10,014 bases of DNA from a virus. Its lineage: Duplodnaviria; Heunggongvirae; Uroviricota; Caudoviricetes. The notes under the pieces were generated by a model. That model was given only the letters and a program-made list of their open reading frames with translations. It was not told the DNA's origin and ran no database searches. The stretch lies in the IMG/VR virus record IMGVR_UViG_3300029107_000029, positions 1 to 10,014 of that record; one strand, 5' to 3'. Below, piece after piece: positions 1 to 10,014 of the stretch. Within the stretch, counting starts at the first letter, position 1. Each line of letters starts with the position of its first letter. The position numbers and the translations under genes are program-made.

Positions 1-1
1 C

Positions 2-2218
2 CGCCATAATGCCGTTGAGGTGAACTGGATTGACCCGGATAACGGCTGGGAGACGGCGACAGAGCTTGTGGAGGACACGCAGGCCATTGCCCGTTACGGT
101 CGTAACGTCACGAAGATGGATGCCTTTGGCTGTACCAGCCGGGGACAGGCGCACCGCGCCGGGCTGTGGCTGATTAAAACGGAACTGCTGGAAACGCAGA
201 CCGTGGACTTCAGCGTGGGGGCGGAAGGGCTTCGCCATGTACCGGGTGATGTCATTGAAATCTGTGATGATGACTATGCGGGGATCAGCATCGGCGGGCG
301 CGTGCTGGCGGTGAACAGCCAGACCCGGACACTGACGCTCGACCGTGAAATCACGCTGCCATCCTCCGGCACCACGCTGATAAGCCTGGTTGACGGGCAG
401 GGGAATCCGGTCAGCGTGGAGGTCCAGTCCGTCACCGACGGCGTGAAGGTGAAAGTGAGCCGTGTTCCTGACGGCGTTGCTGAATACAGCGTGTGGGGGC
501 TGAAGCTGCCGACGCTGCGCCAGCGCCTGTTCCGCTGTGTGAGTATCCGTGAGAACGACGACGACACGTATGCCATCACCGCCGTGCAGCATGTACCGGA
601 AAAAGAGGCCATCGTGGATAACGGGGCGCACTTTGACGGCGACCAGAGCGGCACGATGAATGGTGTCACGCCGCCAGCGGTGCAGCACCTGACTGCCGAA
701 GTCACCGCAGACAGCGGGGAATATCAGGTGCTGGCGCGATGGGACACGCCGAAGGTGGTGAAGGGCGTGAGCTTCCTGCTCCGTCTGACCGTGACAGCGG
801 ATGACGGCAGTGAGCGGCTGGTCAGCACTGCCAGGACGACGGAAACCACATACCGCTTCACACAACTGGCGTTGGGGAACTACAGGCTGACAGTCCGGGC
901 GGTAAATGCGTGGGGGCAGCAGGGCGATCCGGCATCGGTATCGTTCCGGATTGCCGCACCGGCAGCACCGTCGAGGATTGATCTGACGCCGGGCTATTTT
1001 CAGATAACCGCAACGCCGCATCTTGCCGTTTATGACCCGACGGTACAGTTTGAATTCTGGTTCTCGGAAAAGCGGATTGCGGATATCAGGCAGGTTGAAA
1101 CCACAGCCCGCTATCTTGGCACGGCGCTGTACTGGATAGCTGCCAGTATCAATATTAAGCCGGGCCATGATTATTATTTTTATATCCGCAGTGTGAATAC
1201 TGTTGGCAAATCGGCATTCGTGGAGGCTGTCGGTCAGGCGAGCGATGATGCTTCCGGCTATCTGGATTTTTTCAAAGGCCAGATAACTGAATCCCATCTC
1301 GGCAAGGAGCTGCTGGAAAAAGTCGAGCTGACGGAGGATAACGCCAGCAAACTGGAGGAGTTTTCGAAAGAGTGGAAAGATGCCAACGATAAATGGAATG
1401 CCATGTGGGGCGTCAAAATTGAGCAGACCGAAGACGGCAGGCATTATGTCGCGGGGCTTGGCCTCAGCATGGAGGATACGGAGGAAGGTAAACTGAGCCA
1501 GTTCCTAGTTGCCGCTAACCGTATCGCGTTTATTGACCCGGCAAACGGGAATGAAACGCCGATGTTTGTGGCGCAGGGCAACCAGATATTCATGAACGAA
1601 GTGTTCCTGAAGTATCTGACGGCGCCAACCATTACCAGCGGCGGTAATCCTCCGGTATTTTCCCTGACACCGGACGGGCGGCTGACGGCGAAAAATGCCG
1701 ATATCAGCGGTAACGTGAATGCGAACTCCGGGACGCTCAACAATGTCACGATTAACCAGAACTGTCGGATTCTGGGAAAACTGTCTGCCAACCAGATTGA
1801 AGGTGATATTGTCAAAACGGTGGGAAAAGCCTTTCCGAGAAATGGCAGTTATGCCAGCGGTACAATAACGGTCACTGTGTACGATGACCAGGCTTTTGAC
1901 CGTCAGATAGTAATCCCACCCGTTCTGTTTCGCGGTGGTAAGCATGAAAACTTCAACAGCAACAACCAACAGTCATACTGGTATTCAACCTGTAAGCTGC
2001 AGGTGTTGAAGAACGGACAGGAAATCTTTCAGCAACCCGCGACGGATGTCAGCAGGGTATTTTCATCAGTCATTGATATGCCTGCCGGACACGGCCATGT
2101 CACCCTGACTTTCAATGTTTCTTCATATGGTGCTAATAACTGGACGCCAACGACCAGTATCAGCGACCTTCTTGTTGTTGTGATGAAGAAATCTACAGCT
2201 GGTATCAGTATCAGTTGA
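2..2218 (+). CDS. J: Tail tip / host-specificity protein J (lambda gpJ family), 3' portion; the 5' end lies upstream of the window
   Basis: The reading frame is open from the window edge (frame 2, no stop before 2216-2218); the GTG at 20 is only the first in-frame start-like codon, not the true start. The translation matches my recollection of lambda gpJ over long stretches (e.g. ...[30 protein letters not shown]..., ...[25 protein letters not shown]..., ...[35 protein letters not shown]...). The last ~150 residues diverge from what I recall of lambda J. Confidence 0.9.
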
Positions 2219-2236
2219 ATTTTATAACCCAGATAC

Positions 2237-2261
2237 GGGCGCCAGAAATGGCGCCTTTTTT
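2237..2261 (+). terminator. Putative rho-independent terminator downstream of J
   Basis: GC-rich hairpin gggcgcc (2237-2243) / ggcgcc (2250-2255) with a 6-nt loop agaaat, followed directly by a run of six T (2256-2261). Confidence 0.5.
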
Positions 2262-2285
2262 ATTGCAGAAAAGCGAGAGGTAATT

Positions 2286-2885
2286 ATGCGTAAATTATGT
2301 GCTGTTATTCTGTCTGCAGTAGTCTGGCTGGTCGCCGCTGGTACGCCAGCGAGTGCAGCAGAGCATCAGTCCACACTAAGCGGCGGGTATCTTCAGTCCC
2401 ATACTGATATGCCCGGAAACGATGACCTGAAGGGCATTAACGTGAAATACCGTTATGAATTTACGGACACGCTGGGGCTGGTGACGTCATTCAGCTATGC
2501 AGGAAACAAGAATCGCCAGATTACCCGTTACAGCGATACCCGCTGGCATGAAGATTCAGCGCATAACCGCTGGTTCAGCGTGATGGCGGGGCCGTCTGTA
2601 CGCGTGAATGAATGGTTCAGTGCTTATGCGATGGCGGGTGTGGCTTACAGTCGTGTTTCGACGTTCTCCGGGGATTATCTCCGCGTAACTGACAACAAGG
2701 GGAAAACGCACGATGTGCTGACCGGAAGTGATGGCGGTCGCCACAGCAACACGTCTCTGGCGTGGGGGGCTGGCGTGCAGTTTAACCCGACCGAATCCGT
2801 GGCCATTGACCTTGCTTATGAAGGTTCCGGCAGTGGCGACTGGCGCACTGACGGTTTCATCGTTGGTGTCGGTTATAAATTCTGA
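2286..2885 (+). CDS. lom: Lom outer-membrane beta-barrel protein (Ail/Lom/PagC/Rck family), 199 aa
   Basis: ATG at 2286 preceded by GAGG (2277-2280). N-terminal signal peptide ending ...TPASA/AEHQ. Strong similarity to recalled lambda Lom, especially the C-terminus ...[23 protein letters not shown] and [14 protein letters not shown]. Position directly after J is as in lambda. Confidence 0.9.
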
Positions 2886-2912
2886 TTAGCCAGGTAACAC
2901 AGTGTTATGACA

Positions 2913-2938
2913 GCCCGCCGGTTCAGGCGGGCTTTTTT
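2913..2938 (+). terminator. Rho-independent terminator downstream of lom
   Basis: Hairpin gcccgcc (2913-2919) / ggcgggc (2926-2932) with loop ggttca, followed by six T (2933-2938). Confidence 0.6.
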
Positions 2939-2949
2939 GTGGAGTGGAT

Positions 2950-5307
2950 ATGGCAGCAGTAAAAATCTCAGGTGTGCTGAAAGATGGTGCGGGAAAACCA
3001 ATACAGAACTGCACTATTCAACTGAAGGCAAAGCGTAACAGCACCACGGTACTGGTGAACACGGTGGCCTCTGAAAATCCGGATGAAGCCGGGCGTTACA
3101 GCATGGATGTTGAGTATGGCCAGTACAGCGTCATCCTGCTGGTTGAAGGTTTTCCGCCTTCACATGCCGGGACCATTACCGTCTATGAAGGCTCCAGACC
3201 AGGTACGCTGAATGATTTTCTCGGCGCCATGACGGAAGATGATGTCATGCCGGAGGCATTGCGTCGTTTTGAGGAAATGGTGGAAGAAGCGGCACGCAAC
3301 GCTGAAGCCGCCTCTCAGAGCGCAGCGGCGGCAAAGAAATCCGAAACTGCAGCGGCATCATCGAAGAACGCGGCGAAAACCTCAGAAACGAATGCAGCTA
3401 ACAGCGCACAGGCGGCAGCGGCCTCGCAGACTGCATCGGCAAATTCCGCGACAGCAGCTAAAAAATCAGAAACCAACGCGAAAAATAGCGAGACAGCAGC
3501 AAAGACGAGCGAAACCAACGCAAAGTCCAGCCAGACGGCAGCGAAAACCAGCGAAACGAATGCTAAAGCCAGTGAAACTGCGGCGAAAAATAGCCAGAAT
3601 GCAGCAGCCGAAAGCGAGAGCGCGGCAGCCGGTTCTGCGACTTCAGCAGCTGGATCAGCAACTGCTGCGGCTAACAGCCAGAAAGCAGCGAAGACGAGCG
3701 AAACTAACGCAAAGTCCAGCCAGACGGCAGCGAAGACCAGCGAAACGAATGCCAAAGCCAGCGAAACTGCGGCGAAAAACAGTCAGGATGCAGCAGCCCA
3801 AAGCGAGAGTGCCGCAGCTGGTTCTGCAACAGCGGCAGCTAATAGCCAAAAAGCTGCAAAAACCAGTGAAACTAACGCAAAGACGAGTGAAACAAAAGCA
3901 GCAGCCAGCGAGACAGAAGCAACGTCAGCCGCAACAAGAGCAGAGAATGCAGCCCGGATTGCAGAAGATGCCGCTGATCCTGCTTCTGTCCCTCCGCTTC
4001 CTGATATCTGGCTACCCTTGAATGATTCTCTGGAAGCGATAACAGGGTATGCGCCGGGCTATAAAACAATAACCATCGGCAGTGATGAAATAACAATGCC
4101 TGTTAATGGCATATGCCAATTTAGCCGGGCTTCATCAGCAACGTATATTGATAAGTCCGGGCATATTACCGTAGCAGGTAATAACGTTCCTCGTTTTGAA
4201 AAATATGGTTTGCTGATAGAGAATCAGCGAACAAACATGTTCGTAAATAGTTTTAATCCTGATGCCTGGAATAAAAGCGGTGGTATATCTGTAACATCAT
4301 CAACAGATGAATTTGAGTTTAAATATGGACGTTTCACAGTAGGAAGCGATATAGCAGGAACGACAACAGGGAGAAATATATGCACAGTTGCTGGTAATAA
4401 AGGCATAGATGTGACTGGCGATGATCAGTACAGTAAAGGTCCGTATGTTACCGCGTCGTTCAGGGTAAGAAGTGATCTCAATGTTCGCGCACGTATCCGT
4501 TTTGAACGGTATAACTCGGAAGGATACACTTTCCTTTGTGACGCCTATTTGTCATTACAGACTCATGAACTACAAATTACGGGTGGTAATGCCCAGCTAT
4601 TAACAGCAAACTTTGAAATCGACCCTGGTAGTGGATGGATATATTTTCAGGCAACACTGAAATGTCTGCCAGAATGGGGAATGGTTGGTACGCAGCTGCA
4701 AATTGCAGCCGACAGAGCTGTGGGGTCTTTTGCAACAGGTGACTGGATAGAAGTAACCACCCCGCAATTCGAGTATGGTGCTTGTGCAACTTCCTTTATC
4801 ATAACGACAACAGAGCCAGCGACTCGTGCATCAGATTTATGTAAATTTCCGCTGATGAAAAATATGTATACCATGCCTTTTACGTTCATGGTGGAAGTCC
4901 ATAAAAACTGGTTTATTTCTCATAATGCTGCACCGCGTGTCATTGATTCAGAAAATCACCAGTCCGGAGGCCCATTTATTATGGGGTTTGGTTCTTCTGG
5001 AACTATCAGTCAGGATGGTTATTCGTATTGCGATATAGGCGGGGCTAACCGGCGTGTATATGAGTCATGCGGAGTAAGAGATCTCGTTATGGGATTCAGG
5101 GTTAAGGCTGACGGCATGACATGTTCATTTGCAAATAAGAATATAAGCACTGAAACCAAAACAGTATGGAAATATATTCGTGAAGCAGCCGTGATTCGTA
5201 TCGGGGGGCAAACGACGACAGGATTACGACACCTTAATGGTCATATAAAAAACCTCCGTTTCTGGAACAGAGCATTGTCAGATACGCAGCTTAAGGAATA
5301 CGTATAA
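2950..5307 (+). CDS. stf: Side tail fibre protein (Stf-like), 785 aa: lambda-like N-terminus and Ala/Ser/Thr/Lys-rich repeat shaft, with a non-lambda C-terminal half ending in a LamG/concanavalin-A-like signature
   Basis: Preferred start is ATG 2950 with GGAG at 2941-2944 (5-nt spacer); the GTG at 2944 in the ORF track has no Shine-Dalgarno. N-terminus MAVKISGVLKDGAGKPIQNCTIQLKAKRNSTTV...GRYSMDVEYGQYSVIL...FPPSHAGTITVYE matches recalled lambda Stf. The C-terminal ~450 aa do not resemble lambda Stf; the extreme C-terminus GLRHLNGHIKNLRFWNRALSDTQLKEY fits the characteristic end of LamG_3/concanavalin-like lectin domains (...G.ID.vRiynRALSaeEI...). Confidence 0.85.
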   Translation: MAAVKISGVLKDGAGKPIQNCTIQLKAKRNSTTVLVNTVASENPDEAGRYSMDVEYGQYSVILLVEGFPPSHAGTITVYEGSRPGTLNDFLGAMTEDDVMPEALRRFEEMVEEAARNAEAASQSAAAAKKSETAAASSKNAAKTSETNAANSAQAAAASQTASANSATAAKKSETNAKNSETAAKTSETNAKSSQTAAKTSETNAKASETAAKNSQNAAAESESAAAGSATSAAGSATAAANSQKAAKTSETNAKSSQTAAKTSETNAKASETAAKNSQDAAAQSESAAAGSATAAANSQKAAKTSETNAKTSETKAAASETEATSAATRAENAARIAEDAADPASVPPLPDIWLPLNDSLEAITGYAPGYKTITIGSDEITMPVNGICQFSRASSATYIDKSGHITVAGNNVPRFEKYGLLIENQRTNMFVNSFNPDAWNKSGGISVTSSTDEFEFKYGRFTVGSDIAGTTTGRNICTVAGNKGIDVTGDDQYSKGPYVTASFRVRSDLNVRARIRFERYNSEGYTFLCDAYLSLQTHELQITGGNAQLLTANFEIDPGSGWIYFQATLKCLPEWGMVGTQLQIAADRAVGSFATGDWIEVTTPQFEYGACATSFIITTTEPATRASDLCKFPLMKNMYTMPFTFMVEVHKNWFISHNAAPRVIDSENHQSGGPFIMGFGSSGTISQDGYSYCDIGGANRRVYESCGVRDLVMGFRVKADGMTCSFANKNISTETKTVWKYIREAAVIRIGGQTTTGLRHLNGHIKNLRFWNRALSDTQLKEYV
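3499..3900 (+). repeat. In-frame tandem repeats inside stf (units of 189 bp and 168 bp, about 90% identical, plus a partial third unit), nested in a shorter SETNAK-type periodicity
   Basis: Direct sequence comparison: accaacgcaaagtccagccagacggcagcgaa at 3514 recurs as actaacgcaaagtccagccagacggcagcgaa at 3703 (offset 189 bp = 63 codons) and partially at 3871 (offset 168 bp = 56 codons). Encoded peptide AAKTSETNAKSSQTAAKTSETNAKASETAAKNSQ[N/D]AAA[E/Q]SESAAAGSAT... is repeated. Confidence 0.85.
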
Positions 5308-5576
5308 TGCGGGATATAACATTACGATTCGATAACAGAGAACAGTTTAACGCAATTGTATATGACAGTGGCCTGTTCAGTCTTGAAGAAGAAAATGGGG
5401 TTCTTGTTGATGTTATTGGCTGCATTATTGATTACGAGGAACCAGAAAACGAAAGATGTACAGGCATTGATCGCGGTGGTTTTTTCGTAAACATGAGGAT
5501 TGTTGATGGCAGTAAAAACATATCTTCTTTAATGCCTTTCATTACGACAGATCAGCATGTAAGGACATGGGCTTAA
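5307..5576 (+). CDS. Hypothetical acidic protein, 89 aa, translationally coupled to stf; function unknown (candidate cognate fibre chaperone by position only)
   Basis: Its ATG (5307-5309) overlaps the stf stop TAA (5305-5307) in a TAATG arrangement. No recognisable motif. ORF is intact and co-oriented within a tight operon. Confidence 0.55.
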   Translation: MRDITLRFDNREQFNAIVYDSGLFSLEEENGVLVDVIGCIIDYEEPENERCTGIDRGGFFVNMRIVDGSKNISSLMPFITTDQHVRTWA

Positions 5577-5588
5577 TGGAGTAAGACA

Positions 5589-6293
5589 ATGGTTACAAAA
5601 ACAGTAATTCCAGGAGACATCACCACGTTAAAGGGAGATGTCAGTAAAGCCAAGGAAGATATTTCCTCAATTAACGTAAAAGTATCAACGCTTCAGGCTG
5701 ATATGACCAGTGCAAAGCAGGATATCAGCTCCAGATACACAAAAACTGAAGTTGATAATAAGCTGAAAAACAAACTGGAAGTGAACGATCTGGAAAGTGG
5801 TCGTTATGGTGGAGATTTTTACCCGCTGACTGGCCGTGAAGCGTTTTATTTATGGGGGTTGGGCACGACTACTGCGGCGGCAAACCTTTATCTTAATCCT
5901 GACCCCGCAATTTCGTCTGTGCTGCGGTCAACATCGTCTATCCGCTATAAACATTCAGTAGAGACGATAGATTCGGAGCACGCCGATCTCATTTTCAAGA
6001 TGCGCCCTGTATGGTACAGGTCGCAATGCGAAAATGACAGGCGCGATTGGGGATTCTATGGATTGATTGCCGAGGAAGTAGGAGAAATTGCCCCTCAGTT
6101 TGTTCACTGGCGACCAGCTAACGAAGATGATGCACCGGAAACCATTTCCAGCAATGGCCTTGTTGCCGAAGGTGTAATGTACGAACGTCTGGTTGTTCCA
6201 CTGATTCACCATATCCAGAAGCTGACTGAAAGAGTTGATGAACTTGAGTCAGAATTAAAGTTGTTATTAACTTCCCGAAGCGATATTGGATAA
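5589..6293 (+). CDS. Tail-fibre-like protein, 234 aa: N-terminal coiled-coil-like repeats plus C-terminal peptidase S74 / intramolecular chaperone-like domain
   Basis: ATG 5589 with GGAG at 5578-5581. N-terminal repeats ITTLKGDVSKAKEDISSINVKVSTLQADMTSAKQDISS. C-terminal segment SSIRYK...LIFKMRPVWYR...GLIAEEVGEIAPQFV...GVMYERLVVPLIHHIQKLTERVDELESELKLL fits the recalled S74 'chaperone of endosialidase' pattern (S-x4-K, klrPvtYr, GfIAQEv..P..v, vdY..lv.lli.AiqeL). Confidence 0.7.
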   Translation: MVTKTVIPGDITTLKGDVSKAKEDISSINVKVSTLQADMTSAKQDISSRYTKTEVDNKLKNKLEVNDLESGRYGGDFYPLTGREAFYLWGLGTTTAAANLYLNPDPAISSVLRSTSSIRYKHSVETIDSEHADLIFKMRPVWYRSQCENDRRDWGFYGLIAEEVGEIAPQFVHWRPANEDDAPETISSNGLVAEGVMYERLVVPLIHHIQKLTERVDELESELKLLLTSRSDIG

Positions 6294-6303
6294 AGGAGGA
6301 GTA

Positions 6304-6597
6304 ATGGATATAACACCTTTCCTTCACGCGCTTTGTGCTGTGGCTGCGCAGGTACTGGTTGGTCTTTTTACCGGGAACTGGGCTTACGGAGCGATAGCCG
6401 GTTGTACGTTCTTCATTGCGCGTGAACACACCCAGGCAGAATATCGCTGGATTGAAATGTTCGGGCATGGCAAGCGAATGAATATGCCTTGGTGGGGCGG
6501 TTTTGATCCACGTGCATGGGATGTGGCAAGCCTGATGGATTTTGCTGTGCCGGTGGTGGCGTGTCTGCTGGTCTGGCTGTTGATTAATCGCGGGTGA
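6304..6597 (+). CDS. Small predicted inner-membrane protein, 98 aa, about three hydrophobic segments; function unknown
   Basis: ATG 6304 preceded by AGGAGG (6294-6299); the ORF track's TTG at 6286 overlaps the upstream stop and is less likely. Hydrophobic stretches FLHALCAVAAQVLVGLF, WAYGAIAGCTFFIA and LMDFAVPVVACLLVWLLI. No lipobox or signal-peptidase site recognised. Confidence 0.55.
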   Translation: MDITPFLHALCAVAAQVLVGLFTGNWAYGAIAGCTFFIAREHTQAEYRWIEMFGHGKRMNMPWWGGFDPRAWDVASLMDFAVPVVACLLVWLLINRG

Positions 6598-6606
6598 AAA
6601 AGGTGA

Positions 6607-6735
6607 GCTGTATATGCAACGGAGGGCGAAACCTCGTTGCTGGAAGCCTGGAAGAAGTATCGGGTGTTGCTGAACCGTGTTGATACATCAACTGCACCGG
6701 ATACTGAGTGGCCTCTCATTCCTGCAGCTAATTGA
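6607..6735 (+). pseudogene. tfa: 3' remnant of a tail fibre assembly gene (tfa-like), last ~42 codons, with no start codon
   Basis: Frame-1 translation from 6607 to the TGA at 6733-6735 gives [42 protein letters not shown], which matches my recollection of the conserved C-terminus of lambda-family Tfa (...[29 protein letters not shown]...). It is preceded by in-frame stops at 6595-6597 and 6604-6606 and has no in-frame ATG/GTG with a Shine-Dalgarno. Confidence 0.55.
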
Positions 6736-6753
6736 AAACTAGTTAATTATATT

Positions 6754-6788
6754 CCGCAGCAAATTATACTGGTAATATGCTGCGGTTT
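6754..6788. terminator. Hairpin between the convergent tail-fibre operon and diguanylate cyclase gene; possible weak terminator
   Basis: Inverted repeat ccgcagca (6754-6761) / tgctgcgg (6778-6785) with a 16-nt AT-rich loop, followed on the + strand by ttt. The loop is long and the T-run short, so confidence is low. Confidence 0.3.
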
Positions 6789-6829
6789 AATGATCAGTAA
6801 GTATAATATCGTCTGTTGCCACTAAATAG

Positions 6830-8173
6830 CTATGATAGCTCGCTATGTATGATTACCTTGTTTCTGCCAGTTCTTTTGGCTTCATATAGCGATTCATCTG
6901 CTTGAGCCAAGATTTCTGAAGGCATGAGTTTATTTGAAAGAGTGATGAACCCACCTATGCTGATAGTGACTCTTTCAACCCCATATTTAACAGTAAGATT
7001 TTGTGTTTTCACTTCAACATTCCTTCTTATTCTTTCGCTGATTGCTGAGATCTGAGAAAATGAAAGATCATTGAATACAATGGCGAATTCTTCCCCTCCA
7101 AGTCGGCCGAATAAATCTTTGTTCCTGATTGTCTTTGCAATAATCTTTGTTACTGTGCTTATTACTATATCTCCAGTGTGATGTCCATGCTGGTCATTTA
7201 TCTTCTTGAAGTGATCAATGTCGAGCATTAATACACAAATGGAATTATTATTGTTATTTTTTAATATTGTCTTGAAGGCATTTAAAAAACCACCTCTATT
7301 ATAAGTGTTAGTTAAAAAATCGTGTGATGCCAGATAATCTGAATATTTTAATTTCAAAAATATAAAATACATTAGAGTGCATATGATATATAGGCTGGAT
7401 GCTAGTTCAAACCCTTTGGCCCAATACCATATAGGATAACGTGAATCCATAAAATGCAATAATATTAAGTTATCACATGCTAGAGCAATGCTGATAAAGC
7501 TAATGCAAAACCATATTTTTGAATAATTTTTAATAAAAAAACATGAAGAAACAAGAAGTAATAGCCAGAAATAAATTATCGTCTTAATGTAGAATGTATT
7601 CCATGTCAATTGATGGCTGACGGAGGAATAGTATACTATATTAATAGAGTAGCTTTCATTCGCGCTACTTAATATTTTGGCTGTAAATGATATGAAAATA
7701 AGAATTAGTATGGCAAATAGTATTGTGAATGTATTTTTTCTATTTGCACAAGTGTAAATTTCTTTTGAATGGCTTGAAAAAATAGCAACACAGGAAATTA
7801 ACACAAAGCTTATTTGACGGAAAAAGTAAAATATTGCGACGTCATTTGCCTTCTGGATTATTAAGGATTCAGAAGATATTGGTGTTTGCACAATAATTAT
7901 TGTCTCTACAAAATAATAGAGATTGTTCAGGAATGCAATGGCTAGAATCAGCAGGCAAATTTGTTTTTGATGAGATGTATAGTATAAAAACATAAATATA
8001 CAAATCATAAGGTTTATAAAAAACAGGCCTACAATAAAGATAATATAGTTGGTTTGGGTTGTTTGTGTAAGGTATAGCCAATTTTTCTCATGTAACTGCA
8101 TGAGAAAAAATGAAACAAAGATGAATATAATGGAAAATATTTTTAAACTTACAGGTACTGTACGAGTAGTCAT
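6830..8173 (-). CDS. Membrane-anchored diguanylate cyclase, 447 aa: N-terminal ~8-TM sensor-like domain plus C-terminal GGDEF domain with GGEEF active site and RxxD I-site
   Basis: ATG at 8173 (- strand) with AGGTGG 4 nt upstream (complement of 8178-8183). C-terminal domain contains HDFLTNTYNRGGF, the I-site RNKD five residues upstream of RLGGEEF, and DESLYEAKRTGRNKV. N-terminal 270 aa has about eight hydrophobic segments. The gene is very AT-rich with Ile/Phe/Asn/Lys/Tyr-rich codon usage, unlike the flanking genes. Confidence 0.9.
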   Translation of the reverse strand: MTTRTVPVSLKIFSIIFIFVSFFLMQLHEKNWLYLTQTTQTNYIIFIVGLFFINLMICIFMFLYYTSHQKQICLLILAIAFLNNLYYFVETIIIVQTPISSESLIIQKANDVAIFYFFRQISFVLISCVAIFSSHSKEIYTCANRKNTFTILFAILILIFISFTAKILSSANESYSINIVYYSSVSHQLTWNTFYIKTIIYFWLLLLVSSCFFIKNYSKIWFCISFISIALACDNLILLHFMDSRYPIWYWAKGFELASSLYIICTLMYFIFLKLKYSDYLASHDFLTNTYNRGGFLNAFKTILKNNNNNSICVLMLDIDHFKKINDQHGHHTGDIVISTVTKIIAKTIRNKDLFGRLGGEEFAIVFNDLSFSQISAISERIRRNVEVKTQNLTVKYGVERVTISIGGFITLSNKLMPSEILAQADESLYEAKRTGRNKVIIHSELS

Positions 8174-8239
8174 GCTGCCACCTAAAAAAATGCATATTTA
8201 TTCATGTGTATCAATAAATATGTCTCAGGGTAACTTATT

Positions 8240-8285
8240 CTAAATCAGTATACCATTTGTTATAGATGCTGAAATTATCTTTTTC
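8240..8285 (-). promoter_or_regulatory. Candidate sigma70 promoter for the diguanylate cyclase gene
   Basis: On the - strand: TTTCAG, 16-nt spacer, TATACT (complement of 8247-8252), about 75 nt upstream of the start codon, in an AT-rich region. Pattern match only. Confidence 0.25.
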
Positions 8286-9173
8286 TGTAAAGATGACTTT
8301 TGAATGGTTTGCTGGTTATTAATATGCCTGCTAATTTAAGGTGTATATAGTGAATTTTGAGTGAAATTTTTAATGTGTTATTATTTGTGATGTATGTCAC
8401 AGAGCCATTTGAGGCGGTCAGTATTCATACTGATAATTAGTGTGAAATTATGCTCTGTGTATGGCATATGTAGGGGAAGAGCAGACTTCGATTGTACCTA
8501 TTTGCGGTGAATCCGATATCTTTTATTGCGTTGTTGGTCATGTCATGTTGAACTCGATTTAGATTTTTTAGCCGAACTAACAAGCCTGCAGACATCTGAC
8601 ATTTTTTGTTAGAGCGTACTATTTTGATGCGAAGTCATGTAACTTTGTTTCAGGCTGAAAAAGGGTTTAAATTGGGGGAAGTCCAGCTTGGCTCTGGCTC
8701 GATCTCACTCCTCCTTTACTTCTCCATTCAGACCAGGCATCGCAAATTCACTGCATGAAGATGAGCGATTTTTATATATTGTGAAGTAAGCGTTTTTTCC
8801 TAGAGCGGTTGGCCAGGGCAATACATCTTGGGTTTCCCTGATTCGTACCGCTTATGCTTCGGAGATAAGGGGATATGTGCTCTGTGAACCTAACGGGGAT
8901 GGTACAGCCAGCATCATCGATTTCAGCCCGGTAAAAGAGACGAGGAAAAATGCACAACAGGCACCACACGTTATGCATGGATTCGAATTGCTCATAATTC
9001 ACCAGCACAGCTTTAAATCGTAAAGAGAACCACGCTACGCTGTATGCGAGAATGTATTGTGGTTGGCTGGTGAAATTCCGTTAGTGGATTTACAGCCGGA
9101 ACTGATTCTCTGGGAAAGAAATCATGGGCCAACTCACAGGCCACAGAATGAGAATTCTTAGAATTTTTTCGGT

Positions 9174-9213
9174 GGCAAAAATGGGGCAAAACGCTGCAAA
9201 AGGGGCAAAAAAA
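9174..9213. repeat. Four phased GCAAAA A-tracts at helical periodicity (possible intrinsic bend or clustered protein-binding sites)
   Basis: GCAAAA begins at 9175, 9186, 9196 and 9205 (spacings 11, 10, 9 bp): ggcaaaaatggggcaaaacgctgcaaaaggggcaaaaaaag. Adjacent 8-bp palindrome AGAATTCT at 9151-9158. Confidence 0.5.
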
Positions 9214-9506
9214 GAGTGGATTATCGTAGCTTATTGTTGTCGCTGATGATATTTAACACATTGAAAAATAAGTAAAATACTTATGAGTCAGAGAGTTGTG
9301 ATTTTTGCCCTTACTTGTTCAGGTTGTATTGTTCTTTCTTACTAATTTCTTGATTTTGCAACATTTAATAGTAGCTCAATTCATTATATGGCATCAGAAG
9401 AGTATGCATCATGCCGGGATATCCGACAGCAGAAGTCTGATATAAAAACAGTGGCGTGTATGGTACGGATTAGAGGGGAAAATGTCAGCACATTTGCGAA
9501 ATGAAT

Positions 9507-9532
9507 CAAAAAGCCCGCAGCGACGTGCGGGC
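9507..9532 (-). terminator. Rho-independent terminator of the universal stress protein gene
   Basis: Read on the - strand: gcccgca-cgtcgc-tgcgggc followed by TTTTT (complement of 9508-9512), beginning 9 nt downstream of the stop codon. Confidence 0.65.
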
Positions 9533-9540
9533 GTTAGTTA

Positions 9541-10014
<474 letters not shown>

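Follow-up and report, generated by a model that had tools for sequence, protein, structure and literature searches.

A predicted membrane protein gene closes a receptor-binding cassette

The gene described here lies at positions 6304–6597 (+ strand) of a 10,014-nucleotide (nt) stretch of viral DNA (Caudoviricetes; IMG/VR virus record IMGVR_UViG_3300029107_000029, positions 1 to 10,014), referred to as the window, and encodes a small, predicted inner-membrane protein directly behind the tail fibre genes of a prophage. An open reading frame (ORF) of 97 amino acids (aa) runs from ATG 6304 to the TGA at 6595–6597; the initial annotation had placed the gene correctly, but its length of 98 aa includes the stop codon. 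The sequence AAGGAGG (6293–6299) ends 4 nt before the ATG, the stop codon of the upstream fibre gene occupies 6291–6293, and the gap between the two genes is 10 nt. We assign the start to ATG 6304 rather than to the in-frame TTG 6286, because homologues begin at the same MD(I/L)(T/S)P.

6293–6301, + strand: Shine-Dalgarno region AAGGAGGAG, read from the sequence; its first base is the last base of the upstream stop codon
6304–6597, + strand: coding sequence of the 97-aa membrane protein (PHROG 1443 / 'Ybl63' family), from ORF, profile match and codon bias; stop included

Since only a tfa remnant, a hairpin and a convergent gene follow, the gene is the last intact one of the receptor-binding operon, as originally described.

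The gene belongs to a widespread family and is under purifying selection

In a PHROGs search the protein matched phrog_1443, a family of unknown function, over its full length (E 3.6e-59, residues 1–96 on profile positions 1–96 of 97). Its exact sequence falls into a 1313-member UniRef cluster, of which one member is named 'Ybl63', and has also been recorded in Escherichia marmotae. Among 5.8 billion proteins searched, 583 clusters (90% identity) matched, and with a profile 439 clusters (50% identity) were recovered from 1.84 billion representatives; among the matches listed in either search, homologues are 58–146 aa long and have no added domain. Searches of Pfam, NCBIfam and PADLOC gave no match to the membrane protein, and in PHROGs only families of unknown function were matched, with no annotated PHROG or Pfam match at E ≤ 0.1. 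The homology search proposed earlier thus assigns the protein to PHROG 1443, but matched no protein of known function. A profile search of PDB sequences returned noise only (E 0.2), Foldseek comparison of the structural model with PDB and BFVD revealed no relative of known function, and a word-indexed search with the divergent member P0255 as query returned P0255 alone. No experiment or publication on the family was found in our literature search. The family is catalogued as PHROG 1443, yet we found no Pfam or NCBIfam model, structure or paper for it, and as far as we searched the literature, its constant tie to receptor-binding genes and its invariant polar motif (see below) have apparently not been described before.

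Close alleles (96–100% protein identity) vary nearly only at third codon positions, for example with 0/0/12 differences at positions 1/2/3, and differences summed over all distinct comparisons amounted to 1197/1086/2410. The gene is real and under purifying selection. Two antisense ORFs on the − strand, of 116 aa (6118–6468) and 111 aa (6384–6719), were rejected as artefacts, because the third-position bias follows the + strand frame. A simple greedy ORF caller preferred these antisense ORFs to the real gene in many loci.

The GC content of the gene is 52.7%, compared to 39–47% in the upstream fibre genes. When six contexts were aligned, the sequences upstream of the gene proved unrelated, and homology set in at the ATG and weakened over the last helix. 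Because of this difference in base composition and the onset of inter-phage homology at the ATG, the membrane gene appears to have an origin separate from that of the fibre genes. Lambda matched the part of the query with the tfa remnant only and not the included 3' end of the membrane gene. As for a moron, the gene is absent from a relative (lambda) at this position and differs from its surroundings in base composition; a promoter or terminator of its own, of the moron type, was not seen in the window but is possible in the P22-like phage Gally.

The gene adjoins unrelated receptor-binding genes in many phages

Among complete Escherichia coli genomes, 1900 of 5426 (35%) carry the gene, with a median of 2 and up to 7 copies. 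Laboratory and probiotic strains are among the carriers, such as a BL21-derived strain (in its Rac remnant), strain C and Nissle 1917, and E. coli B has kept an intact copy in what is left of its decayed Rac prophage. It is further found in 67 sequenced phages and on phage-plasmids such as plasmid prophage PhiR41_1. When we counted upstream contexts among about 90 closely related prophage loci, three dominated: an Stf-N/GTA-spike-type tail protein plus a PHROG 1361 protein of about 92 aa (39 loci), a 234-aa Peptidase_S74 fibre as in the window (30 loci) and an S74 fibre of about 346 aa (18 loci). The linkage is close to complete: the 92-aa gene is present in 1126 E. coli genomes and contiguous with the membrane gene in 1127, and the 3' half of the S74 fibre gene is present in 742 and contiguous in 744. 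In E. coli, both main upstream partners are followed by the membrane gene in essentially every genome.

The phages carrying the family span four proteobacterial classes and comprise temperate, apparently virulent and jumbo phages. In lambdoid phages the gene adjoins Stf-type and S74 fibres, in Comamonas GpJ (with three small ORFs following), in Leclercia a TSP1/Gp66-type spike, in Desulfovibrio a pectate-lyase/S74 spike, in Chelativorans a Laminin_G tail protein and in Halomonas a DUF4376 protein. In Gally it directly follows the tailspike gene, in the interval between tailspike and integrase. This is the interval in which P22-like phages carry O-antigen conversion genes, and the logic of the locus has been discussed (bioRxiv 10.1101/2021.04.09.439263). 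The 34-aa ORF 'hyp24' of Kapi1, which also lies between tailspike and integrase and was tested for seroconversion, is unrelated and was rejected as a homologue. In coliphage 6947 (47 kb) the gene follows the tail spike, with no integrase seen in the 8-kb region examined, and in the jumbo Aeromonas phage ACP1 (236 kb) it lies after the terminase gene and just upstream of a spike-like gene. Several metagenomic phages have it next to receptor-binding genes as well, among them contig L160, where it is directly upstream of a pectate-lyase spike-like gene. At loci with diversity-generating retroelements (DGRs; L035 4785–8054, L037, L169 and L171, from Comamonas, Pigmentiphaga and two viral contigs), the homologue is positioned between the gene for an Mtd-like variable protein and bAvd. 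An ORF of about 350 aa, presumed to be the reverse transcriptase although not annotated as such, lies further downstream in these loci.

Adjacency of the same family to unrelated receptor-binding types in so many phages, together with the near-complete linkage to two upstream partners in E. coli, indicates that the tie to receptor-binding genes is not accidental, and we regard the family as small phage accessory membrane proteins placed beside receptor-binding genes. A role specific to one receptor, as the initial annotation had implied, is not supported by the same comparison: identity within the family stays at 45–60% even where receptor-binding neighbours and hosts are entirely different, and copies exist on chromosomes outside prophages. 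Across 60 species-level loci there was no single conserved partner; receptor-binding genes were found in phage loci and lineage-specific chromosomal neighbours elsewhere.

The chromosomal copies raise the question of whether the phages merely transport a host gene. In five Aeromonas loci (L005, L011, L014, L016 and L018) the homologue, here X, stands in the order pirin-X-RIO1-lpxL-lpxL and diverges in step with its flanks (78–96% identity, compared to 80–97% for the flanking genes), and three sphingomonad loci have the order ligA-X. The Aeromonas copy is two genes away from two genes for LpxL-type lipid A acyltransferases. 'Chromosomal' copies in Silvania were not counted as housekeeping genes, since they lie beside ompN and nifJ, the Rac prophage end region of E. 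coli, and may be prophage remnants. The gene could accordingly be generic host-physiology cargo: it would encode a small membrane protein conserved in bacteria (a small enzyme, transporter subunit or membrane-homeostasis regulator, for instance) and hitch-hike with exchanged fibre cassettes at an insertion-tolerant operon end. Kept synteny in Aeromonas and the sphingomonads with divergence in step with the flanks, the high conservation across bacterial classes, the GC content unlike that of the neighbours, the intact copy that E. coli B keeps in its decayed Rac prophage and an invariant His/Glu/Asp/Arg cluster resembling an enzyme site all fit such cargo. In contrast, the positions in ACP1 (between terminase and tail-spike-like genes), in L160 (directly upstream of the spike-like gene), inside the DGR cassettes and in coliphage 6947 (after the tail spike, with no integrase seen) are not simple operon ends, and this constitutes the main argument against mere cargo. 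Cargo genes are also uncommon in virulent phages, and the near-complete linkage to both types of fibre cassette in E. coli likewise speaks against this explanation. On balance we consider the cargo explanation serious but unlikely.

Three predicted helices and an invariant polar motif

Hydropathy analysis revealed hydrophobic stretches at aa 4–23, 26–39 (weaker) and 74–96, and an AlphaFold2 model built from 27 homologues placed helices at 4–23, 26–52 and 74–96 (mean predicted local distance difference test 92, predicted template modelling score 0.76). Both approaches concur on three helices, in line with the small polytopic membrane protein postulated initially. The topology prediction suggested at that stage thus upholds membrane association, as a prediction, and hydropathy and model together predict an inner-membrane location. 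We judged the protein unlikely to be a virion component, again in agreement with the earlier view.

6313–6372, + strand: helix 1, aa 4–23, hydrophobic, with invariant His8 and conserved Gln16 (hydropathy, AlphaFold2, conservation)
6379–6459, + strand: helix 2, aa 26–52 (hydropathy, AlphaFold2, conservation)
6421–6453, + strand: invariant polar motif R40-E41-x-x-Q44-A45-E46-Y47-R48-W49-I50 (conservation)
6460–6522, + strand: Trp-rich conserved loop, aa 53–73, G.GKR.NMPWWGGFD.R.W, with R58, P62, W63 and W72 (homologue comparison)
6523–6591, + strand: helix 3, aa 74–96, the most hydrophobic, with conserved D79 and invariant P83 (hydropathy, AlphaFold2, conservation)

Conservation was measured on 144 sequences that are non-redundant at 70% identity. 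Invariant or nearly invariant positions are H8, R40-E41-x-x-Q44-A45-E46-(Y47-R48), I50, R58, P62-W63, W72, D79 and P83, and the window protein carries all of the family-invariant H8, R40, E41, Q44, A45, E46, R58, W72 and P83. Both cysteines and H42 are not conserved in this set. The hydrophobic half of helix 2 (aa 26–39) contains a small-xxx-small pattern (G29/G33) and is followed by the polar motif, and alleles from E. coli phages vary most in helix 3. Judged from helix lengths rather than coordinates, H8 and E41 should be at about equal depth in an antiparallel hairpin of helices 1 and 2, and D79 lies a turn and a half into helix 3, counted from the same side as H8 and E41. The invariant polar residues H8, R40, E41, Q44, E46, R58 and D79 are thereby predicted to cluster at one membrane interface, in an arrangement that looks like a catalytic or ligand-binding site in the model.

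Positive charges are distributed unevenly: the mean number of Lys plus Arg (K+R) is 5.3 in the loop (aa 40–73), about 0.1 in the turn between helices 1 and 2 and 0.5 in the C-terminal tail, and the K+R bias, which averages +5.3 towards the side of N-terminus and loop, is positive in 140 of the 144 sequences. According to the positive-inside rule, N-terminus, loop and polar cluster would thus face the cytoplasm, and only a few residues would be exposed to the periplasm.

Small size and three helices might likewise suggest a holin, antiholin or pinholin-like lysis protein encoded after the tail genes, as holin-type genes follow the tail genes in T7 (gene 17.5) and in many siphophages; like the gene studied here, those for T7 gp17.5-type holins come right after a receptor-binding gene and encode a small membrane protein. 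Lysis-related neighbours do occur, with a CHAP endolysin gene two genes downstream in L159 and a Peptidase_M15 gene upstream in L160, and the three small ORFs behind the Comamonas homologue could be read in the same way. However, no holin family was matched in Pfam or PHROGs, the strongly conserved polar motif is unlike holins, the C-terminus (...LLINRG) is not a long charged tail, and the predicted topology differs from that of gp17.5. Class I holins have the opposite topology to the N-in/C-out orientation predicted here. In the window no lysis genes are near the gene, in the lambdoid and P22-like genomes examined it is not beside them, and Kapi1, which is related to Gally, has its lysis module upstream of the genes for morphogenesis. 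Chromosomal orthologues, moreover, are stably maintained. A lysis function therefore seems quite improbable.

The membrane gene and a tfa remnant behave as a fixed anchor beside exchanged fibres

The upstream cassette and the downstream features of the window are as follows.

2944–5307, + strand: side tail fibre, 787 aa, first gene of the receptor-binding cassette (Pfam, NCBIfam and PHROG matches)
5307–5576, + strand: PHROG 1361 protein, 89 aa, function unknown (PHROG match)
5589–6293, + strand: short tail fibre, 234 aa, with a C-terminal Peptidase_S74 intramolecular chaperone domain (PHROG and Pfam matches)
6607–6735, + strand: tfa remnant, C-terminal ~42 codons plus stop (translation; blastn to lambda orf-194/tfa)
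6754–6785, + strand: stable hairpin, then UUUAAU (folding: −20 kcal/mol, z = −4.4)

The 787-aa fibre has a phage_tail_N N-terminus and long, nearly perfect repeats rich in Ala, Ser and Thr (KTSETNAK.SQTAA...). Its C-terminal domain matches NCBIfam 'GTA head spike fiber' instead of the tip of lambda Stf. A PHROG 1361 relative of about 92 aa is encoded directly upstream of the membrane gene in other prophages. In the window, the 234-aa 'mini-fibre' gene sits between these otherwise neighbouring genes, and its product has only the first ~32 residues in common with the 346-aa fibre of HannyBb-type phages.

Nucleotide homology of the remnant to lambda tfa covers about 6615–6714 (blastn). Membrane gene and remnant share one reading frame with two intervening TGA codons (6595–6597 and 6604–6606), as the initial annotation described; it had considered this probably coincidental while allowing for an in-frame insertion junction. 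In HannyBb and in a prophage of E. ruysiae (L008), one extra A in the A-run behind the stop codon shifts the frame of the remnant. Because the relation is not kept in these relatives, the frame sharing is a coincidence, and the insertion junction can be dismissed. The junction itself, consisting of the membrane gene's stop codon, the A-run and GGTGAGCTGTATATGCAACGGAGG... (window 6598–6735), is common to the window, HannyBb, E. ruysiae L008 and BL21 Rac. As these prophages have unrelated upstream fibre genes, membrane gene and tfa remnant act as a fixed right-hand anchor, to the left of which fibres are exchanged.

Regarding transcription, no sigma-70-like promoter was found on the + strand between 5200 and 6900, and together with the 10-nt gap this indicates that the membrane gene is probably co-transcribed with the fibre genes. 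In HannyBb, a terminator-like GC hairpin with a T-run lies about 20 nt upstream of the membrane gene start, so that late, terminator-resistant transcription, as known from lambda Q antitermination, would be the main source of its mRNA. In Gally, a strong terminator after the tailspike gene is followed by an AT-rich spacer of about 180 nt with only a weak promoter-like site (L002 4760–5000). In lambdoid prophages the gene is thus most likely read by late, antiterminated transcripts along with the fibres, and it may also be expressed in lysogens. The hairpin at 6754–6785 probably represents the end of the late/tail-fibre transcript and may also terminate the convergent gene, acting in both directions, although a simple terminator scan did not call it (long loop, weak U-tract).

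Beyond the hairpin follows the convergent, AT-rich gene for a diguanylate cyclase (447 aa, MASE4 + GGDEF; 6830–8173, − strand), located between the prophage end and uspF. The stretch has 27–32% GC, had no match at this locus in complete E. coli genomes and looks like a separately acquired island. The flanking uspF region is only about 84–85% identical to E. coli, and together with the E. marmotae record of the protein sequence this suggests that the window probably originates from an Escherichia other than E. coli.

Co-transcription with the fibres, the position at the site where tfa, a fibre chaperone gene, was deleted, the constant retention with fibre cassettes and the presence in apparently virulent phages would also be compatible with a protein anchored in the membrane that assists virion assembly or the maturation of fibres or tailspikes, that is, a late morphogenetic factor not directed at the host. 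We nevertheless hold this to be improbable, since the fibres found with the protein have unrelated folds and in part, as S74 fibres, bring their own intramolecular chaperone, since chromosomal copies have no fibre gene nearby and since the terminator and ~180-nt spacer in Gally part the gene from that of the tailspike. Moreover, we know of no tail fibre chaperone that is an integral membrane protein.

Comparison with known exclusion and conversion proteins

The initial annotation had likened the gene to T5 llp and to cor of phi80 and HK022. Llp and Cor (phi80/N15/HK022) have been described as FhuA-blocking proteins that are lipoproteins or associated with the outer membrane, and the likeness consists in small accessory genes beside receptor-binding genes whose products are not virion components. 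As had been stated from the outset, lipoprotein features are missing: the N-terminus has no basic n-region, 'HALC' within MDITPFLHALC is not a lipobox (Leu at −1 before Cys11), and Cys11 is not conserved, being replaced by Ile, Val or Leu in most homologues. According to the model, three hydrophobic helices and one loop of 20–30 residues make up the whole protein, with no soluble receptor-binding domain. Unlike Llp and Cor, it is not bound to one receptor type, and the analogy fails because signal peptide, lipobox, soluble periplasmic domain and similarity to an annotated PHROG or Pfam family are all missing. A lipoprotein of the Llp or Cor type that masks the receptor of the neighbouring fibre thus has the position beside receptor-binding genes in its favour and nothing else. 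With about 60% of the protein in hydrophobic helices, at most a few residues on one membrane side, and the same protein paired with unrelated receptor-binding proteins in unrelated hosts, such masking of an outer-membrane receptor is not supported and appears very improbable.

Closer parallels are found among inner-membrane proteins. SieA of P22 is an inner-membrane superinfection exclusion protein (PMC10883804). Like the protein described here, whose location is predicted, it is phage-encoded and resides in the inner membrane, where it acts instead of at a surface receptor. In P22-type genomes sieA lies in the tail region, a position similar to that of the Gally homologue directly after the tailspike gene. 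In contrast to SieA, to which it has no sequence similarity (PHROG, Pfam), the family occurs with all tail types, has chromosomal homologues and is 45–60% identical across classes; SieA is also expressed from the prophage, whereas the gene here has no recognisable promoter in the window.

P22-like phages encode GtrA (PF04138), a component of the gtrABC O-antigen glucosylation cassettes, in the interval between tailspike and integrase. It is a polytopic inner-membrane protein of small size and good conservation, has many chromosomal homologues and is independent of the serotype-specific part of its system. Size, conservation, polytopic nature, the tailspike-integrase position and chromosomal homologues are shared with our family, which however has no PF04138 match and three predicted helices instead of the four in GtrA. 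No gtrB, gtrC or glycosyltransferase partner was found beside the gene in the window or the related loci examined. The virulent phage T4 prevents the DNA of superinfecting phages from entering by means of Imm (Imm_superinfect), an 83-aa membrane protein. Imm resembles the protein described here in being a small phage membrane protein but has no sequence match in Pfam; imm is not located beside tail fibre genes, and Imm is restricted to T-even phages. Overall, Pfam (including Imm_superinfect), PHROGs and PADLOC revealed no similarity of the membrane protein to T4 Imm, P22 SieA or HK97 gp15.

Discussion

Our comparisons point, tentatively, to an action from the inner membrane that excludes phages or converts the envelope, by blocking DNA entry or by interfering with lipid-linked glycan steps. 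This is the most probable of the readings considered, though short of an even chance; it is followed by host cargo, a morphogenetic helper, lysis and, last, a receptor-masking lipoprotein. Under this proposal, a small inner-membrane protein of the PHROG 1443 / 'Ybl63' family would be inherited in phages within the receptor-binding cassette and, in this prophage, made late from the tail-fibre transcript. It would work in or at the inner membrane on a target conserved across Proteobacteria, rather than on the outer-membrane receptor, which varies; the step affected could be DNA entry or one involving a lipid-linked glycan or carrier lipid. As a result, the infected or lysogenic cell might be less open to attack by phages, or might trap fewer of the phage's own progeny.

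Several observations weigh against this proposal. Database and literature searches yielded neither a sequence or fold relative of known function nor an experiment. Exclusion proteins usually evolve fast and are narrow in range, whereas this family is 45–60% identical across bacterial classes. Chromosomal copies outside prophages keep their synteny in Aeromonas and sphingomonads, which is more reminiscent of housekeeping than of defence, and the Arg-rich C-terminal tails of chromosomal homologues argue against the proposed topology; such tails are absent from the phage copies. Adjacency to receptor-binding genes could partly be explained by the end of the structural operon being a general hot spot for accessory genes. 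Of these points, the chromosomal orthologues and the high conservation are the chief ones against a classical exclusion protein.

A bolder and rather unlikely extension is that the members of the family are small inner-membrane effectors of a new class, perhaps miniature enzymes centred on His8, Arg40, Glu41, Glu46 and Asp79, which phages of many types would deploy together with glycan-directed receptor-binding proteins. They would target something that all Proteobacteria share, such as glycan intermediates linked to undecaprenyl phosphate at the inner membrane. Either the polysaccharide bound by the phage's own fibres would no longer be displayed, or no longer be built inside the cell, so that progeny would be protected and rivals excluded irrespective of receptor specificity, or the passage of DNA through the inner membrane would be blocked generically. 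Aeromonas and sphingomonads would, on this extension, employ the chromosomal version for their own envelope homeostasis.

With its presence in 35% of complete E. coli genomes, often in several copies, the gene is among the commonest uncharacterised E. coli prophage genes, and it moves with the tail fibre and tailspike cassettes that are now swapped to re-target therapeutic phages. If it indeed influences adsorption, DNA entry or surface glycans, this would bear on the engineering of host range, as well as on the phage susceptibility of lysogens and the way in which prophage-mediated resistance is read.

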